DNA of 64,000 nucleotides from Candidatus Paralachnospira sangeri (GCA_904397815.1 CAJFOT010000128.1:6027-70026); one strand, 5' to 3'. Counted from the stretch's first letter, positions 3,105 to 62,567 are shown. Notes: a model not told the origin generated them from the sequence alone. Numbers and translations are program-made.

Positions 3105-4013
3105 ATGGAAAGGATTTCAATGAACAGCTGGATTTCAAAACTGGAACGAAAGTTCGGAAAATATGCCATACCCAATCTGATGATGTATATTATCGGACTG
3201 TATGCTGTCGGTTTCATTCTGATGGCGTCCGGAAGCGGTATATATGAAAATTATCTGAGTCTGAATGCGGAGGCGATTCTTCATGGACAGGTGTGGAGGA
3301 TTGTGACCTTTATTCTGCAGCCTCCTGCGACAAACATTCTATCCCTGCTGATTTATCTGATTTTTTACTATGTCATTGGTAAAAATCTGGAATACAGGTG
3401 GGGTTCTTTTATGTTTAACCTGTATTTTTTTACCGGCATGCTGCTGCATGTGATCGCAGCCCTGCTGATTTATCTGATCTTTGGCGTTAATATTTCCATG
3501 GGCACTTCATATCTGAATCTGTCGCTGTTTTTTGCTTTTGCGACAGAGTTTCCCGATATGCAGGTGCTGCTGTTCTGGATTATTCCCATTAAAGTGAAGT
3601 GGTTTGCCATTCTGGAAGGCATTTATTTCGGTCTGGTGATTGTGCTGGGACTTCTGTCTCCGATACTGTCCTTCAGAACCCTGCTGACTCTGGCCAGTTT
3701 CGGACTGCCGGTTTCTCTGGTATCCGCAGTGTCGGCTCTGGTTTCCACGGGGAATTTTCTGCTATTTTTCTTCAGCATGAAGAGTATGCGCCATTTGTCT
3801 CCGAAACAGATGAAACGGAAAATCGTCTATCAGACAAAGGTGAAAAAGGCCGCGCCAAAATCCGGTGCCCCCAGGCATAAGTGCGCTGTCTGTGGAAGGA
3901 CAGAACTGGACGGGGATAACCTGGAATTTCGCTATTGTTCAAAATGTGACGGCATGTATGAATACTGCCAGGATCATTTATATACCCATAAACATGTAAC
4001 GAAAGGAACCTGA
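3105..4013 (+). CDS. Polytopic membrane protein, rhomboid-like, with a C-terminal Cys/His zinc-ribbon
   Basis: 302 aa with about 6 hydrophobic helices. It has a WR-type motif GQVWRIVTFILQPP as in rhomboids. The tail is HKCAVCGRTELDGDNLEFRYCSKCDGMYEYCQDHLYTHKH (CxxC...CxxC...C..H). I did not see a clear GxSG/His catalytic dyad. Confidence 0.5.
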   Translation: MERISMNSWISKLERKFGKYAIPNLMMYIIGLYAVGFILMASGSGIYENYLSLNAEAILHGQVWRIVTFILQPPATNILSLLIYLIFYYVIGKNLEYRWGSFMFNLYFFTGMLLHVIAALLIYLIFGVNISMGTSYLNLSLFFAFATEFPDMQVLLFWIIPIKVKWFAILEGIYFGLVIVLGLLSPILSFRTLLTLASFGLPVSLVSAVSALVSTGNFLLFFFSMKSMRHLSPKQMKRKIVYQTKVKKAAPKSGAPRHKCAVCGRTELDGDNLEFRYCSKCDGMYEYCQDHLYTHKHVTKGT

Positions 4014-9231: not shown

Positions 9232-10224
9232 TTACTGTCTGCTGCTGTGTCCGCCGAATACGTCAAAGGTCATGGAATCCAGCCGGGAGTCGATGGCCGC
9301 GATTTCTTCCTTCGTCAGCAGGATATCGGCTGCCTCCAGGTTTTCCTTCAGCCGTTCCGGTTTCCTTGAGCCGGGGATCGGGATGATATAAGGCTTCTTG
9401 TTTAGCATCCATGCCAGGGAAATCTGGCTGACAGCGGCATGCTTTTTTTCTGCCAGCTGATCCAGCAGTTCCAGCAGCGCCTTTCCCTTTTCATAGCCGT
9501 CTTCCGTATACTGGGGCATATCCGCCCGGTAATCCTGGCTTCCCTCAAATTGGGTCTGGGGGGTATACTTTCCGGTCAGGAACCCGTTGGCCAGCGGTGA
9601 AAAAGCCACATAGGCCACATCCAGCTCTTCGCACACCGGGAAAAGATTTTCATGCCATCTGGCCATCATCGAATACCGGTTCTGAATTGCGGTTACAGGG
9701 CATACCTGATTTGCCCTTCTCAGATATTCCTCCATTGCCTCGGAGATTCCCCAGCTGCGTATTTTTCCCTCTCTGATCAGCCGGGACATCACTTCTGCCA
9801 CTGTCTCCGGCTCCACCTTCGGGTCGATCCGGTGCTGATAATAAAGGTCTATGTAATCCGTTCCCAGTTTTCTCAGACTTTCTTCCACACTGGAGCGGAT
9901 CGTTTCCGGACGGCTGTCCAGACGCAGACTCCGGTCCTCGTTATGCTGCACGCCCATCTTGGTGGCAATCACCACATGCTGACGCACATCTTTCAGCGCT
10001 TCGCCGACGAGAATCTCATTATAAGAAATAGTACCGTCCGGATAAATTCCTGTGTATACCTCTGCAGTGTCGAAAAAATTGTAACCCATTTCATATGCTT
10101 CCCGGATAACCCTGACAGCTGTCTGATGATCGGTGGGATCCCCTGACGCATGGCTGAATCCCATGCAGCCCAGGCCTACAGGACTGACAGACAGCCCGCT
10201 GTTTCCTAATCTTCTTTTTTCCAT
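9232..10224 (-). CDS. Aldo/keto reductase
   Basis: 330 aa. MEKRRLGNSGLSVSPVGLGCMGF...FFDTAEVY...HRIDP are classical AKR motifs. Confidence 0.9.
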   Translation of the reverse strand: MEKRRLGNSGLSVSPVGLGCMGFSHASGDPTDHQTAVRVIREAYEMGYNFFDTAEVYTGIYPDGTISYNEILVGEALKDVRQHVVIATKMGVQHNEDRSLRLDSRPETIRSSVEESLRKLGTDYIDLYYQHRIDPKVEPETVAEVMSRLIREGKIRSWGISEAMEEYLRRANQVCPVTAIQNRYSMMARWHENLFPVCEELDVAYVAFSPLANGFLTGKYTPQTQFEGSQDYRADMPQYTEDGYEKGKALLELLDQLAEKKHAAVSQISLAWMLNKKPYIIPIPGSRKPERLKENLEAADILLTKEEIAAIDSRLDSMTFDVFGGHSSRQ

Positions 10225-10499
10225 GATGGAATTACCTCCTTGAATGTTTTGGCTTCATTATAATAAAGAAATAAATACGCCAGAAGTTTCCATTTGGAAG
10301 GAGGTATATACCTTTGGGTATACAGTAAAAAATGTAAAATGGAAAATGAAAAATTTTACATTGTCTTTACTGAGTTTTGACAAAATACCCATTTCTTTTA
10401 TGTAGAATTTACGGTACAAATGAATGTATCAATACATTGGGATCATTTTACACAGACAGAAGGATTTTAAGGACTGAGGCAGGAATATTTTTTTTCCTG

Positions 10500-10530
10500 C
10501 CCCGGTTTTTATTATAAAGGATCCGTATTC
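10500..10530 (+). promoter_or_regulatory. Candidate sigma-I-type promoter P1 upstream of sigI
   Basis: CCCC (10500-10503), 20 nt, then CGTATTCT (10524-10531). The same motif recurs at 12236 and 12334. The 8-bp palindrome ggcaggaa/ttcctgcc (10478-10501) overlaps the C-tract. Confidence 0.5.
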
Positions 10531-10552
10531 TATGCTATGGAGGATTGAAGCT

Positions 10553-11281
10553 ATGCAGAAGGAGCATCAGATCGTAAAAGAGGTCTATGCGGCGAAGAAA
10601 GACGCGCAGAAGGCAGATGAGCTGATCCGCGCCTATATTCCCTACATACGTTCTGAAACGTCAAAATGTATTTCCCGCCTCTGCACAGAGCAGGATGATG
10701 AGTTCAGCATCGGTATGATTGCGTTCCATGAGGCAATACTGGGATATGAAAAAGAGAAGGGCGCGTTTTTAAGCTACGCTGCCATGGTGATCCGGAGCCG
10801 CCTGATTGATTTTCAGCGCCGGGAAGCCCGGCACAGGGGGCATCTCTCCCTGAATGAGGCGCAGAACGATGAAGAGCGCACACTGATGGAGGAGCTGGCA
10901 GATGACAGAGATCATTATGAGGAATCTGTCAATCGGGAGGCAACCAGACAGGAGATTGCAGAACTGTCCGCCGTGATGAAGAACTTCGGCGTCACCTTTT
11001 CTGATGTGGCGGATAATTCGCCGAAGCAGCAGAGAACGCTGGAGGCCTGCCGCGCGGCAATCTGCTACGCCGCTGAAAACGCAGAGCTTCTCCGTGAGCT
11101 GCTGCAGACCGGAAAGCTGCCGATGGCGCAGCTGGTCCGGGGCTCCGGCGCAGAACGGAAAACTCTGGAACGCCACAGGAAATATATTCTGGCCATGCTG
11201 CTGATTCAGACCAATGGATATGAGATCATCCGCGGACATCTGCGGCACGTCCTGAAAGGGAAAGGAGGGTTGCCGGCATGA
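10553..11281 (+). CDS. sigI: RNA polymerase sigma factor SigI
   Basis: DDEFSIGMIAFHEAI, NSPKQQ, RKTLERHRKYILAM and TNGY match the B. subtilis SigI signature blocks. I chose the ATG at 10553 (GGAGG 9 nt upstream) over the track start at 10532. The stop overlaps the next gene's start (ATGA). Confidence 0.9.
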   Translation: MQKEHQIVKEVYAAKKDAQKADELIRAYIPYIRSETSKCISRLCTEQDDEFSIGMIAFHEAILGYEKEKGAFLSYAAMVIRSRLIDFQRREARHRGHLSLNEAQNDEERTLMEELADDRDHYEESVNREATRQEIAELSAVMKNFGVTFSDVADNSPKQQRTLEACRAAICYAAENAELLRELLQTGKLPMAQLVRGSGAERKTLERHRKYILAMLLIQTNGYEIIRGHLRHVLKGKGGLPA

Positions 11282-12204
11282 AATATGTGGTGATGGAATG
11301 CTGCCTGAGTTATGCGGTGGTTCTGGACGAAGAAGGCAGATTCCTTAAGGTGGCCAACATGCACTATGAGGTTGGGCAGACCGTAACAGATGTAATTGAG
11401 ATGCAGACTTCCGGCCAGACATCAGCCGGGAAGCAGAAAAAGATAAGAAAATGGATTTATTCGGCGGCGGCGGCCGCGGCGTGCCTGATCCTGGTGTTTA
11501 CCGCGTTATTCCGGACAGAACAGACGCCTTACGCTTCTGTATATATTACCATCAACCCGGAGGTGCGTGTAGATATAGACCAGAATGATACAGTTATCGG
11601 ACTGGAAGGGGTAAATGAGGATGGAAAGCAGCTGGTGGATGGGTACAGCTACCGGAAGAAGCAGCTGGATCTGGTGATGGATGAGCTGGTGGACAGAGCG
11701 ATTGAGATGGGATATCTCTATGAGGGCGGCCAGATTACGCTGACGCTGGACGCGGAAGATGATGAATGGATCGTCAGCCACAGTGAATCTCTGACAAGCC
11801 GGCTGAATGAACATTTGAGAGAGAAGATGAGCGTCACCATCGAGATCCGAGATACAAAAACGGAGAGCCATGAAATCATTATTCCTGTCACGCCGGCAGC
11901 GGAAACGTATCAGTCCTCTGACTACGGAGAAACACAGACACAGGAAAGCAGCGCTTCGCAGACAGCGCCTGAGACCAGTGCCCCGCAGACAGCGCCGCCG
12001 ACCGCAGCTCCGGAACCGGCAGACGGAGACAGCGGTTATGGTGAAGAAGCGGCTGAAGACGGCCAGTCCGCTTATGCGGAACCGAATGACGGCAGCGGAT
12101 CAGACTATGACGATGACGGGGATGACGATGGGGATGACGACAGCGATGATAACGATGATGACGGCGAAGATGGGGATGACGGCGACGATGACGATGATGA
12201 ATAA
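11278..12204 (+). CDS. rsgI: Anti-sigma-I factor RsgI: N-terminal RsgI_N domain, one TM helix, a juxtamembrane domain with an Asn-Pro motif, and an acidic disordered tail
   Basis: MKYVVMECCLSYAVVLDEEGRFLKVANMHYEVGQTV resembles the RsgI N-domain. The TM helix is WIYSAAAAAACLILVFTALF. ITINPEVRVD carries Asn93-Pro94 at 11554-11559. The tail is Ser/Thr/Pro/Ala-rich and ends in DDDGDDDGDDDSDDNDDDGEDGDDGDDDDDE. Confidence 0.85.
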   Translation: MKYVVMECCLSYAVVLDEEGRFLKVANMHYEVGQTVTDVIEMQTSGQTSAGKQKKIRKWIYSAAAAAACLILVFTALFRTEQTPYASVYITINPEVRVDIDQNDTVIGLEGVNEDGKQLVDGYSYRKKQLDLVMDELVDRAIEMGYLYEGGQITLTLDAEDDEWIVSHSESLTSRLNEHLREKMSVTIEIRDTKTESHEIIIPVTPAAETYQSSDYGETQTQESSASQTAPETSAPQTAPPTAAPEPADGDSGYGEEAAEDGQSAYAEPNDGSGSDYDDDGDDDGDDDSDDNDDDGEDGDDGDDDDDE

Positions 12205-12235
12205 AAATAGTAACACAAAAAAATATTTCCGGCGA

Positions 12236-12266
12236 CCCCATTTTTGAAAGAACAGCTCCGTATTCT
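12236..12266 (+). promoter_or_regulatory. Candidate sigma-I-type promoter P2
   Basis: An A-tract, then CCCC (12236-12239), 19 nt, then CGTATTCTGT (12259-12268). Confidence 0.5.
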
Positions 12267-12333
12267 GTAAATGTAACGAGAGGAAAGGACAGACAAGGGC
12301 TTCAAAAAAAGAAAAATAAAAAATATGGTTCCA

Positions 12334-12364
12334 CCCCACTTTTACAAAAGGGCATGCGTAATCT
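12334..12364 (+). promoter_or_regulatory. Candidate sigma-I-type promoter P3
   Basis: An A-tract, then CCCC (12334-12337), 19 nt, then CGTAATCTGT (12357-12366), about 85 nt upstream of the ATG at 12446. Confidence 0.5.
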
Positions 12365-12445
12365 GTATATGAAAGATGAAAAAGAAGCCCTTGAGAATCT
12401 CAGAGAGAATATGAAAATATTACAAAATATTGGAGGAAGATCAGT

Positions 12446-13507
12446 ATGAAAAAAATGAAAGAATTCAGAATGAAGGAAATGGCAGCAGAAAACAGAATCG
12501 GAAAAATGACGAAGTCTCTTCTGACAGCAGGCGCGGTACTGGCGTTAAGCCTTTCCTGTCTGGCGGGATGCGGACAGAATCCTGGCAGCGCAGGAACAGC
12601 AGCAGGCACACAAGCAGCAGTCAGCACAGAGACGGCAGCAGGCACAGAACTGTCGGCCGGAGGGGTACTGTTCCTGAGTGTGAATCCTGAGATCGCGATT
12701 ACCTATGATGAAAATGGAAATGTCACCAAGGTGGAGTCCCGCAACGATGAAGGAGCGAAGATATTAGAAAATTATACAGGATATGAAGGGAAAGCTACCC
12801 GCGAGGTTGTGACGGAACTGGTAACCGCAATCGGAGAAGCCGGTTATTTCGTGGAAGAGATTGAAGGCGAGGCCCGCCAGATCACCATCGAGATCGAGGC
12901 CGGCTCCACACTCCCCAATGACACCTTTCTGGATGAGGTGGCGGCAGATGTCCGCAACTGCGTAAACAGCCACGACTGGCACAGCCCGCTGGATATTCAG
13001 GGTGAGAGCGATTACGGCATGACAGAATATGACGACACGGACTACGGCCCGAATAATGACGGCGTGACTGATTATGACGACACGGACTATGGCCCGAACA
13101 ACGATGGTGTGACTGATTATGATGACACGGATTATGGTCCGAATAACGACGGCGTAACCGACTACAGCGAGACAGCAGCGACAACAACAGCAACAACAGC
13201 AGCAACAACAGCAGCAGCAACAACAGCAGCGGCAGTCTATGATGATACCGACTACGGCCCGAACAATGACGGCGTGACCGATTATGACGATACCGATTAC
13301 GGTCCGAACAACGACGGCGTGACCAACTATGACGACACGGATTACGGCCCGAACAACGACGGCGTGACCAATTATGACGATACCGACTACGGTCCGAACA
13401 ATGACGGCGTGACCGACTACAGTGACAGCGGGGATTCCAATTATGACGACGGAGGCAGCAATTATGATGCCGATGGAGAAGACGGCGACAGCGGATATGA
13501 TGATTAA
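12446..13507 (+). CDS. Secreted lipoprotein with an RsgI-ectodomain-like domain, seven 15-aa acidic repeats and an acidic tail
   Basis: The signal peptide plus lipobox is LSCLAGC. LSVNPEIAITYDENGNVTKVESRNDEGAKIL...ELVTAIGEAGY parallels RsgI residues about 88-160. The repeat YDDTDYGPNNDGVT(D/N) occurs seven times. The RBS GGAGG lies 9 nt upstream. Confidence 0.85.
   Translation: MKKMKEFRMKEMAAENRIGKMTKSLLTAGAVLALSLSCLAGCGQNPGSAGTAAGTQAAVSTETAAGTELSAGGVLFLSVNPEIAITYDENGNVTKVESRNDEGAKILENYTGYEGKATREVVTELVTAIGEAGYFVEEIEGEARQITIEIEAGSTLPNDTFLDEVAADVRNCVNSHDWHSPLDIQGESDYGMTEYDDTDYGPNNDGVTDYDDTDYGPNNDGVTDYDDTDYGPNNDGVTDYSETAATTTATTAATTAAATTAAAVYDDTDYGPNNDGVTDYDDTDYGPNNDGVTNYDDTDYGPNNDGVTNYDDTDYGPNNDGVTDYSDSGDSNYDDGGSNYDADGEDGDSGYDD
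13028..13417 (+). repeat. In-frame 45-nt tandem repeats in two blocks (3 units at 13028-13162, 4 units at 13238-13417), separated by a 75-nt segment (13163-13237) that is mostly an (ACA/GCA)n Thr/Ala linker
   Basis: The units encode YDDTDYGPNNDGVT plus D or N. The peptides are identical while the units differ at synonymous sites (for example ggcccgaataatgacggcgtg, ggcccgaacaacgatggtgtg and ggtccgaataacgacggcgta). Confidence 0.95.
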
Positions 13508-14198
13508 GGCGGAGAAGAAACCGCTCCGACTGCGGCATGAACGGAAACATGTGATAAACCCTCAGGATGACCTGGAATTGTCCGGACGCCTGCGCAGACT
13601 GTTCTCCCATGACAAACACGCTGACTCACACGGGATCTACCGTGTGAGCAGCCTGTACTTTGATACGCCCTATGACAAGGCGCTCCGGCAGAAAGCGGAC
13701 GGCGTGGACCGCAGAGAAAAATTCCGGCTCAGGTTTTACAATGGAGACACTTCCTTTATCCGTCTGGAGAAAAAAATCAAGATGAATGGTCTGTGCGGGA
13801 AATACAGCGCCCGGCTGACGGCCGGGCAGACAGAACTGCTGCTGAAAGGAGAACTGGATTTTCTGAAAAACAGCGGCGATCCTCTTTTGCTGGAACTCTA
13901 CAGCAAAATGCAGGGGCAGCTCCTTGCGCCGAAAACTATTGTGACGTATGACCGGGAGGCTTTCCTGTACGGCCCCGGAAATGTAAGGATTACGATAGAC
14001 CGGAACCTGCGTACCGGCCTGGGCAGCACTGATTTTCTGAACCCGGAACTGTTTCATGTCGGTGTTTCGGACGGCATGGCGGTTTTAGAAGTCAAGTATG
14101 ATCAGTTTCTGCCGGAGCTGGTCAGAATGGCGGTTCAGACACCCAACCGGCAGACGGCCCCCTTTTCCAAATATGCGGTCTGCCGGAAATACGACTGA
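13497..14198 (+). CDS. VTC-domain (triphosphate-tunnel, polyphosphate-polymerase-like) protein
   Basis: YRVSSLYFDTPYDKALRQKADGVDRREKFRLRFY... is typical of bacterial VTC/TTM domain proteins. I chose the ATG at 13497, which overlaps the upstream stop by 11 nt. The track ORF starts further upstream inside the lipoprotein gene. Confidence 0.8.
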   Translation: MMIKAEKKPLRLRHERKHVINPQDDLELSGRLRRLFSHDKHADSHGIYRVSSLYFDTPYDKALRQKADGVDRREKFRLRFYNGDTSFIRLEKKIKMNGLCGKYSARLTAGQTELLLKGELDFLKNSGDPLLLELYSKMQGQLLAPKTIVTYDREAFLYGPGNVRITIDRNLRTGLGSTDFLNPELFHVGVSDGMAVLEVKYDQFLPELVRMAVQTPNRQTAPFSKYAVCRKYD

Positions 14199-14216
14199 TG
14201 GCAGGAGGACTTTTTT

Positions 14217-14888
14217 ATGACGTTTCAGAATATTTTTCAATCTTCCTTTTTGGAAAACGTGTCGGCGATTCCGCCCTTCGATATGGCGCTGGCGCTGATT
14301 CTGGCCTTTCTGACCGGCCTGTTCATATTTTTTGTGTATAAAAAGACCTATGCCGGCGTGATGTATTCAGCCACCTTCGGCATCAGCCTGATTGCCCTCT
14401 GCATGATCACGGCGCTGCTGATCCTGGCGGTGACCAGCAATATCGTTCTTTCTCTGGGAATGGTGGGCGCCCTCTCGATCGTCCGGTTCCGGACGGCGGT
14501 GAAGGAACCCTTCGATATTGTGTTTCTGTTCTGGGCTATCGCGGCGGGGATTGTACTGGCTTCCGGTTTTATTCCGCTGGCAGTTCTGGGCAGTATGCTG
14601 ATTGGTCTGGTTCTGATGGTTTTTTCCCGGTATAAGGGATTTGAAAAGCCCTATATTCTGGTGCTTCACTGTGAGAATGATGAGACAGAGAAGGCTGCTT
14701 TTTCCTTTCTGGACGGAAAGGCAGGGAGGATCTGCCTGAAAAGCAAGAGTGTGGCGCCCGGCTGTATTGAGCTGCATTATGAAGTGCGCCTGAAGGACGG
14801 GGATACGGATTTTATCAATCAGCTGTCCCAGCTGCCCGGTGTGTCCCACATTGTGATGGTGTCCTACAATGGCGATTATATGAGCTGA
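14217..14888 (+). CDS. DUF4956-family membrane protein
   Basis: 223 aa with 4-5 TM helices and then a soluble C-terminal domain of about 70 aa. It occupies the characteristic neighbourhood between VTC and CotH genes. The RBS AGGAGG is present. Confidence 0.75.
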   Translation: MTFQNIFQSSFLENVSAIPPFDMALALILAFLTGLFIFFVYKKTYAGVMYSATFGISLIALCMITALLILAVTSNIVLSLGMVGALSIVRFRTAVKEPFDIVFLFWAIAAGIVLASGFIPLAVLGSMLIGLVLMVFSRYKGFEKPYILVLHCENDETEKAAFSFLDGKAGRICLKSKSVAPGCIELHYEVRLKDGDTDFINQLSQLPGVSHIVMVSYNGDYMS

Positions 14889-16297
14889 TGCCTATGATGA
14901 GATCCCGATATATTGACATGATCTGTATTCTGGGCGCTGCCGCGGCCCTGACGCTGACAGTTCTCTTTATGAATGGCGAGAAACTGGGGCTAACGCCCGC
15001 ATCCTCGATTCCCGGATATGAGACGCGGCTTTTCGACCCGTCGAGGGTACATACCATTGACATAATCATAGAGGACTGGGAGGGGTTTCTGGACAGCGCG
15101 CCGGAAGAGGAATACAGTCCGTGTACACTGATTATCGACGGAGAAGCCTTTTCCAATGTGGCATTGCGGGCGAAGGGAAATAATTCCCGGCGGCTGACAG
15201 AGGAATACGGACTGGACCGGTACAGCCTGAAGGTGGAATTCGACCATTATACTTACAGCAGCTACTATGGCCTGGATAAGTTTTCCCTGGACGCATCTTT
15301 TCAGGACAACAGTTATATGAAAACCTGGATTGCCTATGACATGATGGCGTATATGGGAGTTCCCACACCCCTGTGCAGCTATGTGTGGGTGCGGGTGAAC
15401 GGAGAGGACTGGGGGCTGTTTCTGGCGGTGGAGGAGCCGGAGGAGGCATTTGCCAGGAGAAACTTCGGAAAGGATTACGGGCAGCTGTATAAGCCGGATT
15501 ACAGGTCTCTGAATGATGAAAACGCGGATGTAGCTCTCCGCTATACGGATGATGATATCGACAGCTATGACAATATATTCCGCAACGCAAAATTTAACCC
15601 GTCCGACGGGGATAAGAGAGCGCTGATCGGGGCGCTGAAAACCCTTTCCTCCGGTGAAAATCTGGAATCCGCGGTGAATGTGGATGAGGTGCTGAGATAT
15701 TTTACGGTGCAGGTTTTTGTGGTAAATCTGGACAGCTATCTGGGGCGCACCGGACATAACTATTTTCTGTATGAAGAGGATGGGCGGATCAGCATCCTGC
15801 CCTGGGATTATAATCTGGCCTTTGCCACCTATTCTCTGGGGATGCCTGACCCGGTCAATGATTCCACCCTATATGTCAATTATCCCATTAACACGCCGGC
15901 TGCCGGAGAGGTGATGCTGAACCGTCCCCTCTACCATAATCTGATGAAGCACGATGAATATTTCGCCCGGTATCACGCGTATTTCGACCAGCTGATCGGG
16001 GGATATTTCGAGAGCGGATATTTTGAGGATTTTATAGATCAGACGCTGGAAATGATCCGCCCCTGGGCGGAGAAAGACCCGACAGCTTTCTGCTCTTATG
16101 AGGACTTTCTCCTGGGAGTGGATACTATAAAGGAATTTTGTCTGCTGCGGGCAGAGAGTGTGAGAGGACAGCTGGATGGAGAGATCCCTTCCACAATCAG
16201 AGGGCAGACGGAAGACAGCAGTTCCTTCGTGAATGCCTCCTCTGTATGGCTGCCGGATATGGGTGAGATCGCGGATCTGGAGGACGGTGTCCGCTGA
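14888..16297 (+). CDS. cotH: CotH-family atypical protein kinase, membrane-anchored and extracytoplasmic
   Basis: 469 aa. The N-terminal anchor is MICILGAAAALTLTVLF. The conserved CotH core is GHNYFLYEEDGRISILPWDYNLAF. The start overlaps the DUF4956 stop (TGATG). Confidence 0.85.
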   Translation: MPMMRSRYIDMICILGAAAALTLTVLFMNGEKLGLTPASSIPGYETRLFDPSRVHTIDIIIEDWEGFLDSAPEEEYSPCTLIIDGEAFSNVALRAKGNNSRRLTEEYGLDRYSLKVEFDHYTYSSYYGLDKFSLDASFQDNSYMKTWIAYDMMAYMGVPTPLCSYVWVRVNGEDWGLFLAVEEPEEAFARRNFGKDYGQLYKPDYRSLNDENADVALRYTDDDIDSYDNIFRNAKFNPSDGDKRALIGALKTLSSGENLESAVNVDEVLRYFTVQVFVVNLDSYLGRTGHNYFLYEEDGRISILPWDYNLAFATYSLGMPDPVNDSTLYVNYPINTPAAGEVMLNRPLYHNLMKHDEYFARYHAYFDQLIGGYFESGYFEDFIDQTLEMIRPWAEKDPTAFCSYEDFLLGVDTIKEFCLLRAESVRGQLDGEIPSTIRGQTEDSSSFVNASSVWLPDMGEIADLEDGVR

Positions 16298-16309
16298 CTG
16301 GCAGACTGG

Positions 16310-17773
16310 TTACAGAAGTCTGTGCTTCTGCTGATACAGCTCCAGAATATCGACAGACAGCTGACAGTATTTGCGGGCGTAGGCATCGTCCAGACTGTGC
16401 TCCAGAATTTCCTGGATTTTCCGGATCCGGTACAGAACGGTATTCCGGTGAGTAAACAGCGCTGTGCTGGCCCGGGAGACAGAACGCTCATTGTCCAGAA
16501 ATATCTTCAGGGTGTGGAACAGCTCGTCCCCGTTTACCTGGCTCTGTTCCCACAGCTGGATCACCGCGGGCATGCAGGCATGTACCGACTTGATCAGAGA
16601 GTCGGATTCGACGATATAATCAATGGCATAATCGAAGAAATCATAATAGTTATCCTGGGGATGGAACATTTTTCCGGTGGCGGCGGCATAGGCGGCCTGG
16701 GCGTACAGATAGCCGGCCTGCTCGATGCCTTTGCAGGGCAGGCTGAAGCTGACCTTCACCGGATTGCGTGCCTCCAGGTAGCGGAAAAATTCCTGCATGG
16801 CCGGATCTTTCCGGAGGTTCCGGTTGGAAAACATCAGAATATAGGGCTGTTTTTTCATAACAATACAATTCTTTACCTGCTGGAGGATAACCTGCATTAC
16901 CAGATCCAGGCTCCTGTCCGGATCGCCCCGCCCGTCCTGACTGACAATTTCTGCCAGAGCCAGATAGTAGCAGTCGTCGGCATTCCATCCCTGGTATTCC
17001 AGCTGGGTTTCCAGCAGCTTTTCATCGTAAGCATTTCCGAACAGAATGTTGTAGAACACATTGGTATTATTCAGAAAGCTTTCATAATAAATCTGTCCCA
17101 GGCTGGGTTCCAGCATGGCGGCTATGTACTCCAGCAGCTGCCAGTCGCCTGGGTTGGTGGCACGTTCCTTTTCCAGGACGGTAATCCTTCCGCACACAGC
17201 GTCATTGCAGTATAAACAATAGGAAATGCCGTTGTAGGCCAGGGTCTTATTGCGGGAGAAGCGGAAGGACTGGGTGCCATGCTGCCAGAAATCTGCGGCG
17301 GTGTGGTTATTCCGCATCTGCTGCATGGCGTTCAGAGAGGTGTAGCCGTACTGACAGAGATAGGCCCATTCCTCGTCCAGCGAGTCGGCCGGATACTGTC
17401 TGGTGATGGCCAGCACACGGCTGTTGCCGTCCAGAATCATCATAGGATTTTGAAAGACCTGCCACGCCAGGTCGATCACACCCTGGTAATCTCTCCGGCG
17501 GATCAGCTGAATCAGCTGGTCGGCCCAATCCTGGAAATAATCGAAGACACTCTGGATAATTTCCACCCCCTGAGTGACGTCCATATTGTGGACGCGGATG
17601 GTATCTCCCTCGCCGCTGCAGACCAGATCTTCCCCTTCCCGGTATACATGTACACAGTTTGTGGCATAAACCCGGCGGGCGCTTTTCAGCACAACGGGGG
17701 CATTATTTTTAATATCCAGAACCATATCCAGGGAAGACAGGCGGTTGGCGATCATCCACATACTCAGCTTCAT
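16310..17773 (-). CDS. PucR-family transcriptional regulator
   Basis: 487 aa. The C-terminal PucR-type HTH is SVSRASTALFTHRNTVLYRIRKIQEIL. It is divergent from the transporter operon. Confidence 0.85.
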   Translation of the reverse strand: MKLSMWMIANRLSSLDMVLDIKNNAPVVLKSARRVYATNCVHVYREGEDLVCSGEGDTIRVHNMDVTQGVEIIQSVFDYFQDWADQLIQLIRRRDYQGVIDLAWQVFQNPMMILDGNSRVLAITRQYPADSLDEEWAYLCQYGYTSLNAMQQMRNNHTAADFWQHGTQSFRFSRNKTLAYNGISYCLYCNDAVCGRITVLEKERATNPGDWQLLEYIAAMLEPSLGQIYYESFLNNTNVFYNILFGNAYDEKLLETQLEYQGWNADDCYYLALAEIVSQDGRGDPDRSLDLVMQVILQQVKNCIVMKKQPYILMFSNRNLRKDPAMQEFFRYLEARNPVKVSFSLPCKGIEQAGYLYAQAAYAAATGKMFHPQDNYYDFFDYAIDYIVESDSLIKSVHACMPAVIQLWEQSQVNGDELFHTLKIFLDNERSVSRASTALFTHRNTVLYRIRKIQEILEHSLDDAYARKYCQLSVDILELYQQKHRLL

Positions 17774-18000
17774 AAAACAGCACTCCTTTTTTTATATCGT
17801 TTAAATTGTCCGACTAATATGCATAATTATCCAGGGTACTTTTGTATTTTAGATAAAATTCAGAGGGAAGAACAGAGATTGAATTTACAAAATTTACAGA
17901 TTACTGACGAAGGAAAATTGTGCGGGGGATACATGGCAACCTGCTACAGGTCCGGTATAATAAAGACATCGAATTTCACAGCAAGGGGGTTGCATGATTT

Positions 18001-19395
18001 ATGCAAGAAAAAAGTTTAAGTTCAGCACAGGTAAATAAATATGGCTTTTACCTGCTGACTTCGTCATTGGCGGCGATGGTTCAGATGACATATCTGACGA
18101 TTTTTATGACAGATATTATTATGATTCCCACGGCAGTGGTTGCCTCTACCCTTCTGATTGCCAGAATCATAGATTTTCTGATCGGCGTGATCTGCGGCGG
18201 TATTATTGAAAAGTTCCGGATGCCATGGGGAAAGTATCGTTCCTGGCTTCTGGTACTTCGGTGGGTAATTATCTTTTCACTGGTATGTTCATTCTTTGAC
18301 ACATCCAGCTGGCCGGTTGCGTTCCGTGTAGGTGTGTCTTTCATCGGATATTTCCTGCTGAATGCGGGTATGAGTTTTACAACAAATGCGTATTATGCGT
18401 TGGGGCCGGCGCTGGCAGGAGCAAATCTCAATGACCGTAACCGGCTCAGCGCCCGCGGTGCTCAGTTTATGTGTGTGGCAATGCTGATTACATCTGCGCT
18501 GACCATTCCGCTGGTTACAGCCCTGACACCTGTTGTCGGACCTGCCAATGCTTATCTGATCGTAGCGGTGGTATTTGCCCTGCCCTATATCGGAGGCTGC
18601 CAGATGGTTTCCAATATGTGCCGTGAGTGTGATCCTTCCGGAAAGGCGGAAAAAGGCGGTGCTCAGGCTGGCCCTACTGTAACGCTGGGTGATATGGTCC
18701 GTTCCGTAACACAGAATTCACAGCTGCTGGTTTTGTTTATCGCATATACGATCTATTATATCGGTCTGTATGTGATTTCCGGCCTGGGTACATATTATTT
18801 TACTTATATTGTCGGAGATTTCATGAAAATGTCAGTCAGCATGACAATTACCATGATTACCGGTTTTATCGCTTCTCTGATAATGCCGAAGCTGGGCGGG
18901 AAACTGGGCAAGAAGAAAGCCTTTGTTACCGCGCTGGTTGTATACGCATTGGCTTATGCATGTGTATTCTTCATTGGCGGCAACTGGCCTTTCTATACAC
19001 TGTGCGGCGCGATTGGCGGCGGTGCTGTATACCTGTTCTCCAGTTTTGGCGCAAACTACTTTGTTGACTGCGGTGAGTATCACCTGCACAAGACAGGAAA
19101 AGATACCAGAACAATCGCCATTACGATGTACTCGGTTCCGATGAAAATCGGCATGGCACTGGGCGGCGCGATCGCTACTTACGGACTGGCTTTTATCGGC
19201 TATCATGCCGGCATGACCATCGACGGCGCGTTCCAGACTAAATTTATGTTCCTGTTATCCATTATTCCTGCGGTCCTCGTGCTGATTGGCGCGCTGATTA
19301 TGCTCATTGGCTACAAGATTACTGATGAAGACGCAGCAAGATATGCGGCGGAAAATGCCGCAAGAGCTGCGGAGGCTGCCGCAACAAAGGAATAA
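18001..19395 (+). CDS. MFS transporter, glycoside-pentoside-hexuronide (GPH):cation symporter family
   Basis: 464 aa with about 12 TM helices and a GPH-like N-terminus (YGFYLLTSSLAAMVQMTYLTIFMTD). Confidence 0.8.
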   Translation: MQEKSLSSAQVNKYGFYLLTSSLAAMVQMTYLTIFMTDIIMIPTAVVASTLLIARIIDFLIGVICGGIIEKFRMPWGKYRSWLLVLRWVIIFSLVCSFFDTSSWPVAFRVGVSFIGYFLLNAGMSFTTNAYYALGPALAGANLNDRNRLSARGAQFMCVAMLITSALTIPLVTALTPVVGPANAYLIVAVVFALPYIGGCQMVSNMCRECDPSGKAEKGGAQAGPTVTLGDMVRSVTQNSQLLVLFIAYTIYYIGLYVISGLGTYYFTYIVGDFMKMSVSMTITMITGFIASLIMPKLGGKLGKKKAFVTALVVYALAYACVFFIGGNWPFYTLCGAIGGGAVYLFSSFGANYFVDCGEYHLHKTGKDTRTIAITMYSVPMKIGMALGGAIATYGLAFIGYHAGMTIDGAFQTKFMFLLSIIPAVLVLIGALIMLIGYKITDEDAARYAAENAARAAEAAATKE

Positions 19396-19414
19396 GTGAG
19401 GAAAGGAAAAAGAT

Positions 19415-20449
19415 ATGGCAAAAATGACAGAAAAAGAAAATTATCTGAGAACTCTGCGGGGAGAACAGCCTGAATGGGTGCCGGTATATAGTTTTGGACC
19501 CATGCCGGGGCAGGAACGGCCGTGTACCTCCTGTATGCTGGAGCCTTTGATCCTCAGTGAATTCCGCTTCAATGGCGGCGGGAAGGACTGCTGGGGCGTA
19601 ACCTATGTGCCCACCAAGGAAACCGGCAATGCTCTTCTTCCCAAACCGGGAGAATTTATTCTGGATGACATCCGTCACTGGCGGGATGTGATCAAAGCGC
19701 CGTCACTGGATGGCATTGACTGGGAAGCGATGGCAAATAAGCAGCTGGAAGGCTTTTATAAAATGGGTGTAAACCGAGAGGATACCGCTATTGCCCTGAA
19801 CCTGCATGTAGGATATTTCCAGAATCTGATGGCGTTTATGGGATTTACTGAAGGACTGTGCGCTATGTTCGAGGAACCTGAAGAAGTGAAAGCACTCTTT
19901 GATTATATGTGTGATTTCTACACAGAGGTTACCCGTCAGATCTGGCCTTATGTGAAACCTGATGTGCTGACTCTGATGGATGATACCGCTACCTGGCGGG
20001 CACCTTTCATCTCTGCTGAGATGTATCGGGAGCTGGTATTGCCTTTCCATGACAGACAGGCGAAATTTGGACGAGATGCGGGTATTCCCATTACCATGCA
20101 CAACTGCGGGCGGGCAGAAGATTTTATGGAAGACCTGCGCGGGATCGGCGTCAATGCCTGGGATCCTGCCCAGACATGCAATGATCTGAAAGGAGTGCAG
20201 GAAAAGTTTGGAAACAGCCTTGTGCTGATGGGATGCTGGGACGCAAGAGACCGGCTGATGGCCCCTGATGCAACAGAAGAGGAAATCCGCCAGTCAGTTC
20301 GGGATACCATGGATACTTACGCGCCCGGCGGCGGATTTTGCTGGTGCGGCGGATATCTGGGCGCTGTCGGTGACGAGGAAATCAACAGAAGGAATGCGAT
20401 TCTGTTCGATGAGGTATATAAATACGGCGATGCTTTCTACAAAAAATAA
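19415..20449 (+). CDS. URO-D-superfamily protein, MtaA/CmuA-like putative methyltransferase (paralogue 1)
   Basis: 344 aa with LRGEQPEWVP, DDTATWRAPFISAEMYRELVLPF and MHNCG (an HxC motif), plus later Cys residues (FCWCGGY). It starts 19 nt after the transporter stop. Confidence 0.75.
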   Translation: MAKMTEKENYLRTLRGEQPEWVPVYSFGPMPGQERPCTSCMLEPLILSEFRFNGGGKDCWGVTYVPTKETGNALLPKPGEFILDDIRHWRDVIKAPSLDGIDWEAMANKQLEGFYKMGVNREDTAIALNLHVGYFQNLMAFMGFTEGLCAMFEEPEEVKALFDYMCDFYTEVTRQIWPYVKPDVLTLMDDTATWRAPFISAEMYRELVLPFHDRQAKFGRDAGIPITMHNCGRAEDFMEDLRGIGVNAWDPAQTCNDLKGVQEKFGNSLVLMGCWDARDRLMAPDATEEEIRQSVRDTMDTYAPGGGFCWCGGYLGAVGDEEINRRNAILFDEVYKYGDAFYKK

Positions 20450-20567
20450 TATCAGCTTAATGTCATTTGCTTTATAATGAAAGTATTGCAGAGACTTGCT
20501 TACGGAGCCTTCCTTGAATTACAGAGAAGGCTTCGCGGCGCAACAATAAAAAGGGGGAAAAGAATTT

Positions 20568-21653
20568 ATGACAGTTGGAAAATTTATGCAGACAGCGGCA
20601 AATCGTGATTACTCAAAAGAATGGCAGGCTCCGGGCAGCTTTCCCTGGATTATCCAGAGACCGAAAGAGCCTATTACGGGAAGACCTTACAGCGTAAGGG
20701 AGAACTATATTCGCTGTGTAAAGGGAGAACAGCCTTACTGGATGCCCTGCTACATGTATGAAACCAATACGATCTGGCCGGACGCCATGGAAGAGCATCC
20801 TGTTCCCGAGGTAGACGGCTATGACTGGTGGGGTGTATACTGGACAATGGTAGAGTCAGTAGGCGGCATGATTACGAAACCAGGGACCAGAACCATTTCT
20901 GATTTTGCAAAGTGGAAGGAAGAACTGGAGTGGCCGGATCTGTCTGTAGTGGATTTCAAGACAGACGGCGAGAAGATTCAGAAGATGCTGGACCCCGAAC
21001 GGGCTCATATCTATGAGAGCGTGGAAGGCATTTTTGAGCGTCTTCATGAGATGATTCCTTTTGACGAATCTTTGATGGCTTTCTATGAGGAACCGGAACT
21101 GCTGGAAGAGTTTTTCCAGAAGATGGCGGACTATAAAATAGAGTCTACTCAGAAGATCTTTGATTATTATGGCCGGGTGGACGGCGTTCTCTATCATGAT
21201 GACTGGGGGACCCAGAGAGCAGGCTTCTTCTCGAATAAGATGTTCCGTGAGCAGCTGATGCCGGCTACAAGCCGTTATCTGAAATTTATCAAGGATCAGG
21301 GCAAGTTTATTGAGCTCCATTCCTGCGGCAAAAATGTACAGTACGTTCCGGAGATGATCGAGATGGGCATCGATATGTGGACCCCTCAGTCCGGAATTAA
21401 TGATCCTGATTATCTGTATGAAAACTATGGCGATCAGATGACCTTTGCCTTCTTTGTACAGATCGACCCGAAAGCAGATGAGGCTGAGGTAAGAAGAGTA
21501 GTCAGAGATTTCGTTGATCATTTTGGCGCAAAAGGCCGGTGTATGCCTTGCTTCATGACAGATATGAGCAATCCGATGCAGGATACTGTTGCTAAGGATG
21601 AGCTGTACAACTATTCACTGGAATACTACAATAAACTGTACAACAGAGGCTGA
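20568..21653 (+). CDS. URO-D-superfamily protein, MtaA/CmuA-like putative methyltransferase (paralogue 2)
   Basis: 361 aa with VKGEQPYWMP, HDDWGTQRAGFFSNKMFREQLMP and LHSCG (an HxC motif), plus CMPC. It is collinear with paralogue 1. Confidence 0.75.
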   Translation: MTVGKFMQTAANRDYSKEWQAPGSFPWIIQRPKEPITGRPYSVRENYIRCVKGEQPYWMPCYMYETNTIWPDAMEEHPVPEVDGYDWWGVYWTMVESVGGMITKPGTRTISDFAKWKEELEWPDLSVVDFKTDGEKIQKMLDPERAHIYESVEGIFERLHEMIPFDESLMAFYEEPELLEEFFQKMADYKIESTQKIFDYYGRVDGVLYHDDWGTQRAGFFSNKMFREQLMPATSRYLKFIKDQGKFIELHSCGKNVQYVPEMIEMGIDMWTPQSGINDPDYLYENYGDQMTFAFFVQIDPKADEAEVRRVVRDFVDHFGAKGRCMPCFMTDMSNPMQDTVAKDELYNYSLEYYNKLYNRG

Positions 21654-21664
21654 TAAAACACACA

Positions 21665-21706
21665 GAGGGGATTTCTTTCCGGATTCTTCCGTGAAGAAAT
21701 CCCCTC
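21665..21706 (+). terminator. Strong hairpin after URO-D paralogue 2
   Basis: gaggggatttctt (21665-21677) and aagaaatcccctc (21694-21706) form a perfect 13-bp stem. The T tract is weak. Confidence 0.5.
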
Positions 21707-21775
21707 AACTGTCTTAACAAATCACCGGTTTTATGATATGATGGCTGTGTACGTATTACGACAGGAGGACTTAAA

Positions 21776-22825
21776 ATGGGGAAAAAATACGCAGCCTATG
21801 TAGGTTCCTATACATTTATCGGAAACAGTAAAGGCATTACGATTTATGATGTAGATGTAGAAAAAGGACGTCTCACAAAAAAAGGCGAGGCGATAGTTAA
21901 TAATTCATCATATCTGGCGGTATCCCATGACCGGAAGTATCTGTATTCGATTGTTGATGAGGGAATTGCCAGCTTCCGTATTCTTGAGGATGGCATGCTG
22001 GAACAGATGAATATCGCCACAATCCAGGGGATGAGGGGCTGCTATTTGTTCCTGGACCCTACTGACCGGTATATTTTTGTCAGCGGATATCATGATGGAA
22101 AACTGACTGTTCTGAATATCCGGGAGAATCATACTGTGGGAAGCATTACTGATTTTGTATTTCATAAAGGGATTGGGAGTGTTGCTGAAAAAACCCATCA
22201 GCCCCATATCAGCTGTGTCATGATGACACCGGATTCGAAATATGTGTGCGCGGTGGATTCCGGCATTGACCAGATTAAAGTGTACAGCTTTAATTATGAA
22301 ACCGGTCGGCTGGCGCTGGCTGATATTGTCCGCTGTGATCTGGAGTCCGGTCCCCATCATATGATGTTCAGTAATGACGGGCGGTTTATGTATGTTGTAT
22401 GCGAACTGAAAAAGCATATCTGTGTTTATTCCTATGACGGAAACGGGGCTTCTCCCTGTTTCGAGCTGGTTCAGAGGATTTTTACAGTGCGAAAAAACGC
22501 CAGCAGCGTCAGCGCAGCCTGCGCCATTGAGATGACATCGGATAACCGATATCTGTTCTGTTCCAACGCCGGGGACAACAGTGTCTGCATTTTCCAGAGA
22601 GACGCTGAGAGCGGCAGACTGTCCGTGATGCGGATTCTTCCCATCAGCGGTGACTACCCGAAAGACATCGGCCTCTTTCCCGATGACCGTCATCTGTTTT
22701 CCGTCAACCATGAGTCAGGTTCTCTGACCTTTTTCACTGTCAATTACGAAAAAGGGCTGATTATCATGAACCAGGTCCCCATCAGCGTGGATGAGCCAAA
22801 CTGCGGGCTGATTGTGGAACTGTGA
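21776..22825 (+). CDS. Lactonase, 7-bladed beta-propeller (6-phosphogluconolactonase-like)
   Basis: 349 aa. AYVGSYT...GITIYDVD..., with repeated blade-like segments and ...HLFSVNHESGSLTFF. It has its own TTAACA-17-TATGAT promoter-like element upstream. Confidence 0.8.
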   Translation: MGKKYAAYVGSYTFIGNSKGITIYDVDVEKGRLTKKGEAIVNNSSYLAVSHDRKYLYSIVDEGIASFRILEDGMLEQMNIATIQGMRGCYLFLDPTDRYIFVSGYHDGKLTVLNIRENHTVGSITDFVFHKGIGSVAEKTHQPHISCVMMTPDSKYVCAVDSGIDQIKVYSFNYETGRLALADIVRCDLESGPHHMMFSNDGRFMYVVCELKKHICVYSYDGNGASPCFELVQRIFTVRKNASSVSAACAIEMTSDNRYLFCSNAGDNSVCIFQRDAESGRLSVMRILPISGDYPKDIGLFPDDRHLFSVNHESGSLTFFTVNYEKGLIIMNQVPISVDEPNCGLIVEL

Positions 22826-22893
22826 CAGTTTTGGCGGGCTGGAGGTTTTATCCGGAAGGGAACGATAAGCAGGTATTTTTTGGAGGGAATATT

Positions 22894-23556
22894 TTGACAA
22901 AGGAAGAATTTTTAATCCGTATCAAAGAAGATGAAGAATATTCACCTGGCTGGCAGGCGATTGATGACGCTTTTGAAGCTTTGTACCCTGGCCAGACTCC
23001 GAATCACTTCGGAACGCTTCTGACTTCGAGGGCAATATTCGGCGGCGATCAGTATTTAGACGGATTTTCTGTATATACTTCTCCAAAAGGCTATAAGCAT
23101 CTGGTTACGTATGGGATGACAGTGCTTTACGGCGATGAGGACGCTTTCGGCGGTGAATGGAACGGCTGGGGCTACGAAATGACTATAAAACTGAAAGAAA
23201 AAGACACGGAAAGCTGTATGTGGGCAATTGATATGCTGTCTAACCTTGCGGGATACACATACAAAACCAGCCGTTATTTTGAACCGGGCCAATATGTGAA
23301 AGGCAACGGCACCTCCCTTCATATTGGCGCAGATTCTCTGATTACAGCGCTTTTGCTGGTAAACGATACCGAGGCCAAACCGCAGATGTCCGTGTATGGA
23401 AAAACAGAATTTATCCAGCTTGTCGGAATAACTGAGTCGGAAATTCAGGCGCTCATCAGGGATCGAAACAATATTTCCAGGCTGATTGAACTGATGAAAG
23501 CGGATGGAAATGAGGATCTGGTTACAGATATGAGAAGGTCCAAATCGTATTTGTAA
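22894..23556 (+). CDS. SUFU-like (suppressor-of-fused) domain protein
   Basis: WQAIDDAFEALYPGQTPNHFGT...DGFSVYTSPKGYKHLVTYGMT...WGYEMTIKL is typical of bacterial SUFU-family proteins. I chose the TTG at 22894 (GGAGGG 6 nt upstream) over the track start at 22822. Confidence 0.7.
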   Translation: MTKEEFLIRIKEDEEYSPGWQAIDDAFEALYPGQTPNHFGTLLTSRAIFGGDQYLDGFSVYTSPKGYKHLVTYGMTVLYGDEDAFGGEWNGWGYEMTIKLKEKDTESCMWAIDMLSNLAGYTYKTSRYFEPGQYVKGNGTSLHIGADSLITALLLVNDTEAKPQMSVYGKTEFIQLVGITESEIQALIRDRNNISRLIELMKADGNEDLVTDMRRSKSYL

Positions 23557-62437: not shown

Positions 62438-62531
62438 AGTAATCCTCCCAAATGATAGTTGTCTTTGGCTATAAGTATACGGCAGCCGGCGGAAAAAGAA
62501 AAGAAAAAAGTGACTGCCGAAACGAAAAATC

Positions 62532-62567
62532 GTAACAGTTCAGCCATGCAGGCCACAGACCGCCTGC
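62532..62567. repeat. Copy B of the 36-nt dispersed repeat
   Basis: gtaacagttcagccatgcaggccacagaccgcctgc is 34/36 identical to 40004-40039. Confidence 0.85.

Follow-up and report, generated by a model that had tools for sequence, protein, structure and literature searches.

The closest described relatives of the system reported here are the SigI/RsgI pairs of Bacillus subtilis and Clostridium thermocellum (RsgI1-9), the accessory genes of Pel polysaccharide loci, the eukaryotic VTC complex and the CotH kinases of Bacillus. Autoproteolysis of RsgI, the anti-sigma factor, at an Asn-Pro motif, followed by force-dependent release of its ectodomain, is the established activation route of the first (PMC10328401, PMC10556640), and in the grammar of sigma-I promoters a specificity block and an A/T-tract go together with CGWA at -14 to -11 (PMC10575876). 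A trio of genes for CotH, a polyphosphate (polyP) polymerase and a DUF4956 protein is known as an accessory set that, in streptococci, clostridia and bifidobacteria, adjoins pelDEADAFG (PMC7112168). Synthesis of polyP by eukaryotic VTC is coupled to membrane translocation (PMC9911596), and the known substrates of CotH are tandem-repeat proteins encoded beside cotH (PMC7821199). In a stretch of 64,000 nucleotides from Candidatus Paralachnospira sangeri (GCA_904397815.1, CAJFOT010000128.1:6027-70026; hereafter the window, with positions counted from its first letter) relatives of these systems are found together in one cassette at 10553-16297, in which sigI and rsgI are followed by genes for a lipoprotein, a VTC-domain protein, a DUF4956 protein and CotH, and which appears to be under sigma-I control.

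For this cassette we propose the following mechanism, to which as a whole we give a probability of roughly 0.45, its regulatory and architectural part being held with high confidence. A mechanical or cell-wall signal would pull the RsgI ectodomain from its autocleaved stub, and the freed SigI would amplify its own expression along with that of the effector operon. The VTC enzyme would polymerize phosphate from ATP at the membrane, where an MgtC-like DUF4956 protein would hold it and deliver polyP, or some other phosphoanhydride donor, to the outer side. With this donor CotH would phosphorylate, at multiple sites, the [S/T]-D-Y tails of the lipoprotein and probably those of RsgI too; phosphorylation of the tails would alter envelope charge or cation binding and feed back on the sensor.

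An earlier sequence-only reading of the window had described the gene content and junctions of the locus, and every junction was read again and confirmed. All six genes lie on the + strand. The sigI stop and the rsgI start share ATGA at 11278-11281 (sigI, 10553-11281; rsgI, 11278-12204). The lipoprotein gene (12446-13507, stop codon TAA at 13505-13507) overlaps the VTC-domain gene (13497-14198, ATG at 13497) by 11 nt; the VTC stop codon (14196-14198) is followed by an 18-nt gap containing GGAGGA and then by the ATG of the DUF4956 gene (14217-14888), which in turn overlaps cotH (14888-16297) as TGATG at 14886-14890. The cotH stop codon (16295-16297) is separated by a 12-nt gap, also as claimed, from the stop codon (from 16310) of a convergent gene, pucR, identified as PucR helix-turn-helix by Pfam. 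On the + strand between 12204 and 16297 no terminator-like sites were found except two 5-6 bp stems inside the DUF4956 gene, which upholds the claim that no terminator-like hairpin lies between the genes; such sites are in total at chance level (10 found vs. 7.0 ± 3.0 expected). The arrangement strongly supports reading the lipoprotein, VTC, DUF4956 and cotH genes as a tightly, translationally coupled four-gene operon (12446-16297).

The motif CCCC-N17/18-CCGTATTC has exactly two matches in the 64 kb (10500-10530 and 12236-12265), against 0.01 expected, one of them directly before sigI and the other 30 nt after rsgI. The predicted sigma-I-type promoter of sigI (10497-10531, + strand) has CTGCCCCGGTTTTT as its -35 region and CCGTATTCT at -10, with CGTA at 10524-10527, and that of the effector operon, P1 (12230-12267, + strand), reads GCGACCCCATTTTT ... 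CCGTATTCT. A third, slightly degenerate copy of the motif (GCGTAATC-type; CCCCACTTTTACAAAAGGGCATGCGTAATC) lies at 12334-12363, 98 nt past that of P1, and makes a second, tandem promoter, P2 (12328-12365, + strand; TCCACCCCACTTTT ... GCGTAATCT), so that the effector operon is one with tandem predicted sigma-I-type promoters. Counted from CGTA under the sigma-I grammar, transcription is predicted to start about 11 nt past the A of CGTA, at about 10538, 12273 and 12371. ATG 10553, which has GGAGGA 8 nt upstream, is the likelier start codon of sigI than ATG 10532, since the latter abuts the -10 element and lies upstream of the predicted transcription start. The sequence-only reading had regarded the two strict motifs as the only promoter-like elements upstream of the operon; both are present as described, and the word "only" slightly overstated the case in view of weak sigma-70-like matches. 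The third copy had not been listed there.

Two further elements lie upstream of sigI. A G+C-rich hairpin with a T-run (GGCAGGAATATTTTTTTTCCTGCC) at 10478-10501 overlaps with its 3' arm the -35 block of the sigI promoter, and could either shield this promoter from transcription arriving from upstream or block access to it. At 10331-10362, between a divergent aldo-keto reductase gene and sigI, lies a perfect 9-bp inverted repeat (AATGTAAAA ... TTTTACATT) that may be an operator. An Rfam search across 10150-16400 found no RNA family, and no known riboswitch or leader in the 5' untranslated regions.

In order to compare the locus with those of other species, one genome per species was scanned with the VTC alignment, the best 80 of at least 567 stretches encoding a relative were taken (loci L001-L080), and cassette genes in these loci were scored by searching their open reading frames (ORFs) with the six window proteins. 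DUF4956 follows VTC in 80/80 loci, CotH lies downstream in 76 of 77 and elsewhere in the cassette in one more, and the lipoprotein lies upstream in 63 of 64. The sequence-only reading had made its proposal depend on the association with sigI-rsgI being conserved in other genomes; both genes are present in 57 of the 58 informative loci of other species, those with sufficient flank (co-directional in 52, divergent in 5). The loci belong to Lachnospiraceae, Oscillospiraceae, Erysipelotrichia, Peptococcaceae, Syntrophomonadaceae, Filifactoraceae and Carnobacteriaceae, with the nearest relatives of the cassette among metagenome-assembled genomes (MAGs) of Lachnospiraceae and other Clostridia. Candidates for cultured carriers are Pseudoflavonifractor capillosus (L080), Gemmiger formicilis (L054), Traorella massiliensis (L018) and Intestinimonas aquisgranensis (L078). 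Database homologues number in the thousands, and the module is common in gut Clostridia and Erysipelotrichia.

The similarity of the 80 cassettes across classes is unusually high (VTC 59-73% identical; CotH at E below 1e-190), while their flanks differ, which suggests that the whole cassette has spread horizontally. A search across the same loci for conserved flanking genes (polysaccharide synthases, site-2 protease, transporters) yielded none, the largest shared flank family being an ABC ATPase in 15 loci at variable positions. Because the genes outside it are not conserved, the cassette is probably a self-contained unit that has moved between lineages.

The consensus from a weight matrix of strict matches, GACCCCGnTTTT-N12-(C)CGTAWTCT, fits the sigma-I grammar, with an A/T-tract at -35 and CGWA at -10, and its use by SigI is predicted. 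Scores of at least 9.9 were obtained upstream of sigI in about 52 of 59 loci and upstream of the lipoprotein gene in about 57 of 61, compared to a maximum of 2.9 over 114 control segments; tandem motifs precede the lipoprotein gene in 24/55 loci at a spacing of 70-100 nt (168 nt in locus L071). It could be argued that the adjacency of sigI-rsgI has no regulatory meaning, that the four genes are transcribed from housekeeping promoters and that the recurring motif has no promoter function. A weak sigma-70-like match (9/12) at 12391-12418 and others inside genes would suit this explanation, but the total of such matches is at chance level (15 found vs. 9.7 ± 2.8 expected), and in dozens of species the motif has been kept at both positions, unlike the intergenic sequence around it. 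Furthermore, the five loci with inverted sigI-rsgI retain both motifs, and a Saccharofermentanales MAG (L066, 7380-12942), which has no sigI-rsgI within 10 kb and carries two lipoprotein paralogues in tandem, still shows, ahead of the second of them, a motif of the sigma-I type whose -10 reads CGAA. We thus regard an accidental adjacency as very improbable, and sigma-I control of the cassette as strongly supported by the sequence comparisons.

The two regulatory proteins conform to the described pairs. SigI (242 aa; Pfam Sigma70_r2) has ten SigI models as its top matches and aligns with the NCBIfam sigma-I model TIGR02895 at E 6.6e-53 (protein 11-228, model 1-217 of 219), its score of 179.6 bits falling just below the equivalog cutoff of 185. 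Immediately 3' of sigI, in the position of a cognate partner, rsgI encodes a protein with an N-terminal candidate anti-sigma domain (RsgI_N, 22.8 bits, E 8e-5; Pfam cutoff 25), a single transmembrane segment at residues 58-81 by hydropathy, a SEAL/RsgI_M domain (Pfam, 5e-23) with Asn93-Pro94, a Pro/Ala/Thr linker and an acidic tail bearing S/T-D/G-Y motifs. NP[E/D] is retained in 56 of 61 RsgI homologues and the tails are acidic in all. A sigma/anti-sigma pair of the autoproteolytic SEAL type, with cleavage predicted at the Asn-Pro motif, is thus strongly supported. The overlapping genes, the single transmembrane segment, the juxtamembrane SEAL domain with Asn-Pro, the disordered extracellular tail (as in B. 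subtilis) and the predicted autoregulated promoter with A/T-tract and CGWA -10 are all shared with known SigI/RsgI systems. In contrast to these, the predicted regulon consists of the VTC/DUF4956/CotH operon and a lipoprotein paralogue of the ectodomain, not of peptidoglycan or cellulosome genes; there is no carbohydrate-binding module in the RsgI tail, which is extremely acidic and bears [S/T]-D-Y motifs, and the -35 specificity region is GACCCC.

The lipoprotein has a lipobox (LAGC, lipid-bearing Cys42) and an RsgI_M domain (Pfam, 4.5e-13) with an Asn-Pro motif at Asn80-Pro81 (VNPE). BLASTP aligns it with RsgI at E 1e-9 over the NPE region, and homologues keep the lipobox and VNPE, the latter about 20-50 residues past the lipid Cys in most. 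Since its RsgI_M domain carries a VNPE that aligns to RsgI, the lipoprotein is by sequence a lipid-anchored paralogue of the RsgI ectodomain (SEAL), a relationship that had been missed in the sequence-only reading. SEAL domains without an anti-sigma domain have been noted previously, but not the lipoprotein type of this cassette.

Behind the SEAL domain follows a long, acidic tail of 15-aa DYDDTDYGPNNDGVT repeats interrupted by an Ala/Thr spacer, which is encoded by 45-nt tandem repeats at 13014-13155 and 13238-13414. The tails of the lipoprotein and of RsgI have the motif [T/S]-D-Y-[G/D]-[D/P] in common: TDY occurs in 62/62 lipoprotein tails (726 occurrences in 10.5 k residues) and in 41 of 55 RsgI tails, SDY in 25 of the latter. 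The presence of the same [S/T]-D-Y motif in the tail of the sensor, together with the tandem-repeat, neighbour-encoded nature of CotH substrates in Bacillus, lends support to the suggestion that the Tyr/Thr/Asp tail may be a substrate of CotH.

The composition of the tails, 20-50% Asp with Lys and Arg almost absent, would also suit a module for divalent cations or polycations, in which the Asp/Tyr-rich tails would serve as ligands of Ca2+/Mg2+ or cationic peptides. The sensor would respond when these are lost or in excess, a shed acidic fragment of the lipoprotein would act alongside exported polyP as chelator or decoy, and phosphorylation by CotH would only tune charge. PolyP is a strong cation chelator, and the acidic part of the lipoprotein could be released since the autocleavage motif is retained. 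Against this, no calcium-binding or other repeat family came up for the tails in Pfam at E up to 10, the strictly spaced [S/T]-D-Y motif resembles a recognition or acceptor site more than plain charge, and no metal transporter co-occurs in the 80 loci. Such a cation module seems improbable to us, and we favor phosphorylation of the tails as their role.

The tail DNA also has consequences for gene prediction. Asp-codon repeat DNA lacks stop codons in other frames, and gives rise to long spurious ORFs at 11870-12247 (+), 11888-12241 (-), 12882-13619 (-) and 13422-13496 and to over-extended calls of the VTC gene: the database copy P0001 has 244 aa instead of the likely 233, and ORFs of up to 1.8 kb are found in related loci.

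CotH (469 aa; Pfam CotH, 2e-59) matches Bacillus cereus CotH (5jd9) at E 4e-16. The intact kinase core claimed for it from the sequence was confirmed, with GHNYFLY and LPWDYN both present, and its D282 (NLDSY) and D307 (PWDYN), invariant in homologues, correspond to D228 and D251 of B. subtilis CotH, mutants of which have been described (PMC7821199). The membrane anchor on which the proposed outward topology depended was likewise found: residues 8-30 are hydrophobic, and a basic-plus-hydrophobic N-terminus is conserved in all 78 homologues. By this predicted topology CotH should be a signal-anchored kinase with its catalytic domain outside the membrane. It shares with Bacillus CotH the fold, both catalytic Asp residues and neighbouring tandem-repeat low-complexity proteins, which in Bacillus (CotB/CotG) are the substrates. 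It differs in being signal-anchored rather than a coat protein, and where Bacillus has basic Ser/Lys/Arg repeats, its putative substrates are acidic and rich in Tyr and Thr.

A sporulation-specific role for this CotH was considered and set aside, since the cassette occurs in Carnobacteriaceae MAGs and the trio in streptococci and bifidobacteria, and since the predicted signal anchor places the kinase outside the cytoplasm. Carnobacteriaceae and bifidobacteria are not known to sporulate. Streptococci do not sporulate (PMC7112168).

The VTC protein (233 aa; Pfam VTC, about 4e-37 to 5e-37) lacks hydrophobic segments and appears to be a cytoplasmic, single-domain enzyme. Its AlphaFold2 model (predicted local distance difference test, pLDDT, 75) has Vtc4 structures as top Foldseek matches in the PDB (5iiq, 3g3t, 3g3r and 8i6v; E about 1e-10 to 1e-11), and the 14 best matches, which include Vtc4, Vtc2, Vtc3 and YgiF, have a probability of 1.0. 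A profile search of PDB sequences with the VTC alignment gave nothing at E ≤0.01 and, with the limit relaxed to E 10, no more than a partial alignment to Vtc4. R77/R79, K93, Y151/R153 and R164 align with Vtc4 R264/R266, K281, Y359/R361 and R373 (Vtc4 numbering obtained by counting along the printed alignment), and all six are invariant in 23 homologues. A yeast Vtc4 R264A/R266A/E426N triple mutant is inactive (PMC9911596). The assignment to the triphosphate-tunnel enzymes made in the sequence-only reading is borne out by the Vtc4-type model and the conserved catalytic Arg pair, and model and sequence together strongly support a Vtc4-like triphosphate-tunnel enzyme and putative polyP polymerase.

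In common with eukaryotic VTC (Vtc4/Vtc3/Vtc1) the cassette thus has the Pfam VTC tunnel domain with the Arg pair and tunnel residues kept, and an obligate pairing with a membrane protein. The cassette enzyme differs in being separate and soluble: neither an SPX domain nor a VTC-type membrane domain was found in its 233 aa, and its partner is the MgtC-like DUF4956 protein rather than a three-helix VTC membrane domain. A distant VTC subfamily (P0335, P0338) carries an N-terminal extension of 230-260 residues that is strongly basic, rich in Lys/Arg/Pro/Gln and without a Pfam domain.

The DUF4956 protein (Pfam, 1e-9) has five predicted helices and a confidently modelled C-terminal beta-alpha-beta-beta-alpha-beta (ACT-like) domain. 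The top Foldseek match of the model is the C-terminal domain of MgtC (2lqj; target-normalized TM-score 0.62), and the NCBIfam MgtC/SapB model aligns collinearly over residues 72-212 at E 8e-6. This similarity is remote, at 25.6 bits against a family cutoff of 214 and with a Pfam MgtC E of 2, but sequence and predicted fold agree that DUF4956 is MgtC-like, a resemblance missed in the first reading. By the positive-inside rule the N-terminus would lie outside and the ACT-like domain in the cytoplasm, and an invariant VRFRTAxKxPxD loop is predicted at the cytoplasmic face of the membrane. Published transcriptome studies mentioning DUF4956 gave no usable hint at its function.

The resemblance to MgtC in sequence and C-terminal fold may point in another direction, namely that polyP never leaves the cell. 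Tethered by the MgtC-like protein, the VTC enzyme would then make membrane-proximal cytoplasmic polyP or, in the manner of MgtC, regulate phosphate and ATP in a response to envelope stress, and CotH would act independently outside, with locally released ATP, or be a non-catalytic binder. Firmicutes generally have other routes to cytoplasmic polyP, which speaks against this. Where MgtC is cited in PMC12345266, it is presented not as a channel but as regulating ATP synthase and phosphate metabolism, and in Streptococcus intermedius no phenotype is reported for deletion of the VTC gene, whereas deletions of the DUF4956 and CotH homologues have one (PMC12345266). On the other hand, VTC, DUF4956 and CotH are adjacent in essentially every locus, in very different contexts, which argues for joint action, and the catalytic Asp residues of CotH are invariant. 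We consider an intracellular role of polyP rather unlikely.

It is plausible that exported polyP fuels outward-facing phosphorylation, considering that the trio is invariably adjacent in very different contexts, that eukaryotic VTC provides a precedent for coupled synthesis and translocation, and that Bacillus CotH substrates are encoded by neighbours while sensor and lipoprotein here have a repeat motif in common. The most specific version of this reading would be a bacterial analogue of the VTC machine, in which the VTC protein, docked on the MgtC-like protein, threads polyP outward, polyP and not ATP feeds CotH, and the tails of a sheddable SEAL lipoprotein and of RsgI are phosphorylated, closing an extracytoplasmic loop of mechanosensing and phosphorylation. 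In this detail the proposal is tentative, and we hold it to be possible but doubtful.

Several observations weigh against donor export and tail phosphorylation as proposed here. We know of no CotH-family kinase that uses polyP and of no MgtC-family protein that acts as a channel. The DUF4956 protein is unrelated to the eukaryotic VTC membrane domain, and its membrane part is modelled poorly (pLDDT 40-58). Counterparts of Vtc4 K200, E426 and K458 are without a rigorous alignment, as the hidden Markov model alignment spans the central part of the protein only; pattern-based candidates are K17, E198 and S224-K225, and nothing beyond a chance match came up when the C-terminal fragment was searched by itself. 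No VTC-DUF4956 fusion was found among the 150 best of 7,389 representative clusters, in which longer VTC relatives carry only basic, disordered N-terminal extensions without a Pfam domain. The VTC deletion of S. intermedius, for which no phenotype is reported in contrast to the DUF4956 and CotH deletions (PMC12345266), argues against a strictly linear pathway. Lastly, in its more distant copies the trio is part of polysaccharide loci that lack both sigI and the lipoprotein, so that the target could be a glycan or its machinery.

Two distant copies were found on plasmids. On pNP95 of Pseudobutyrivibrio xylanivorans (L081), CotH-VTC-DUF4956 is preceded by genes for glycosyltransferases of families GT61 and GT2 and followed by those for GT4 and pyruvyl transferases, a glycan context of GT2/GT4/GT61 and acyl- and pyruvyl-transferases around the trio. 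On a Planococcus maritimus plasmid (L082), the genes that come after VTC-DUF4956-CotH encode a hypothetical protein of 690 aa, a protein with HEAT repeats and a glycosyltransferase, a layout that mirrors NELoc-2 of Clostridium perfringens. Neither sigI nor the lipoprotein gene was found at these two loci. In S. intermedius, deletion of the DUF4956 or CotH homologue lowers Pel-dependent aggregation by more than 50% in sputum medium and changes Pel levels (PMC12345266).

One possible explanation for these contexts is that the trio is a glycopolymer-associated module, in which CotH phosphorylates a glycan or a component of its synthase, or exported polyP is the anionic partner of a cationic polymer; SigI/RsgI would then only supply envelope-stress control, and the acidic lipoprotein would be a scaffold or decoy rather than a substrate. 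CotH is distantly related to Fam20-type secretory kinases, and one member of that family phosphorylates a sugar. The contiguity with pelDEADAFG in streptococci, clostridia and bifidobacteria, the altered Pel level and aggregation of the mutants, the glycosyltransferase genes around the Pseudobutyrivibrio copy and the large hypothetical, HEAT-repeat and glycosyltransferase genes after the Planococcus and NELoc-2 copies all agree with it. Nevertheless, the 80 close relatives have no polysaccharide gene as a consistent neighbour, neither pel nor other polysaccharide genes occur within the 64-kb window, and the sole extracytoplasmic proteins that travel with CotH are RsgI and the lipoprotein, which have the same repeat motif. 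For the cassette we take this explanation to be unlikely.

The accessory genes of Pel loci (PMC7112168; SIR_1592-1594 in S. intermedius, PMC12345266) resemble the cassette in the adjacency of the three families, in a CotH that is predicted to be secreted or to face outward, and in a DUF4956 protein described as MgtC-like transmembrane plus ACT. The cassette differs in having no pel genes, no DUF4832 and no FN3 on CotH, in having SigI/RsgI and the SEAL lipoprotein, and in its order VTC-DUF4956-CotH. The authors of the S. intermedius study found no trio outside Pel loci (PMC12345266), and the cassette is a large counter-example. The gene table of NELoc-2 in C. perfringens gives, in this order, a sigI-like gene, a wall-associated hypothetical protein of 348 aa, a VTC protein and a membrane protein of 226 aa and, past a resolvase, another VTC protein, another membrane protein and CotH (PMC2879425). 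It differs in that the VTC and membrane protein pair is duplicated around the resolvase and that the genes behind CotH encode a large hypothetical protein, one with HEAT repeats and a chitin-synthase-like glycosyltransferase, and its description includes no discussion of sigma-I (PMC2879425).

The sequence-only reading had taken the trio to be functionally uncharacterised and its link to sigma-I to be undescribed. The former does not hold, in that the trio was already known beside pel, with mutant phenotypes, and near sigI in NELoc-2; the latter does, as no discussion of sigma-I control of the trio was found in the literature searched, where DUF4956 itself is rarely mentioned. What is new, then, is the link to sigma-I, the lipoprotein paralogue of the sensor with its shared TDY tails, and the occurrence of the trio as a widespread stand-alone cassette.

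Many CotH-family proteins carry secretion signals. With a putative polyP polymerase, a membrane partner, an outward kinase and candidate repeat substrates in one small unit that appears to be co-regulated, the question of how kinases outside bacterial cells come by a phosphate donor becomes directly testable. If true, the proposal would provide a first function for bacterial VTC-domain proteins and for DUF4956, and might hint at one for the enigmatic MgtC fold. SigI/RsgI mechanosensing would also gain a regulon of a new kind, in which the sensor's autocleaving ectodomain has a lipoprotein copy. As the module is common in gut Clostridia and Erysipelotrichia, it may shape surface charge or surface polyP of abundant gut commensals. 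We think that the cassette has a realistic chance of hiding new biochemistry.

Elsewhere the window carries the genes of an ordinary core chromosome (topoisomerase, pyruvate kinase, recA, rny, mutS/L, miaA, mreC, a penicillin-binding protein, minCD and rodA), with three sizeable ORFs without a Pfam match at 570-1271, 3105-4013 and 62469-63425 (-). Downstream of the cassette, at 16310-23556, the gene for the PucR-family regulator (-) is divergent from one for an MFS_2 transporter, and genes for two URO-D-like proteins, a lactonase-type beta-propeller and a bacterial SUFU-domain protein are found there as well. This neighbourhood, which is not conserved beside the cassette, may represent a small catabolic or methyltransfer locus.

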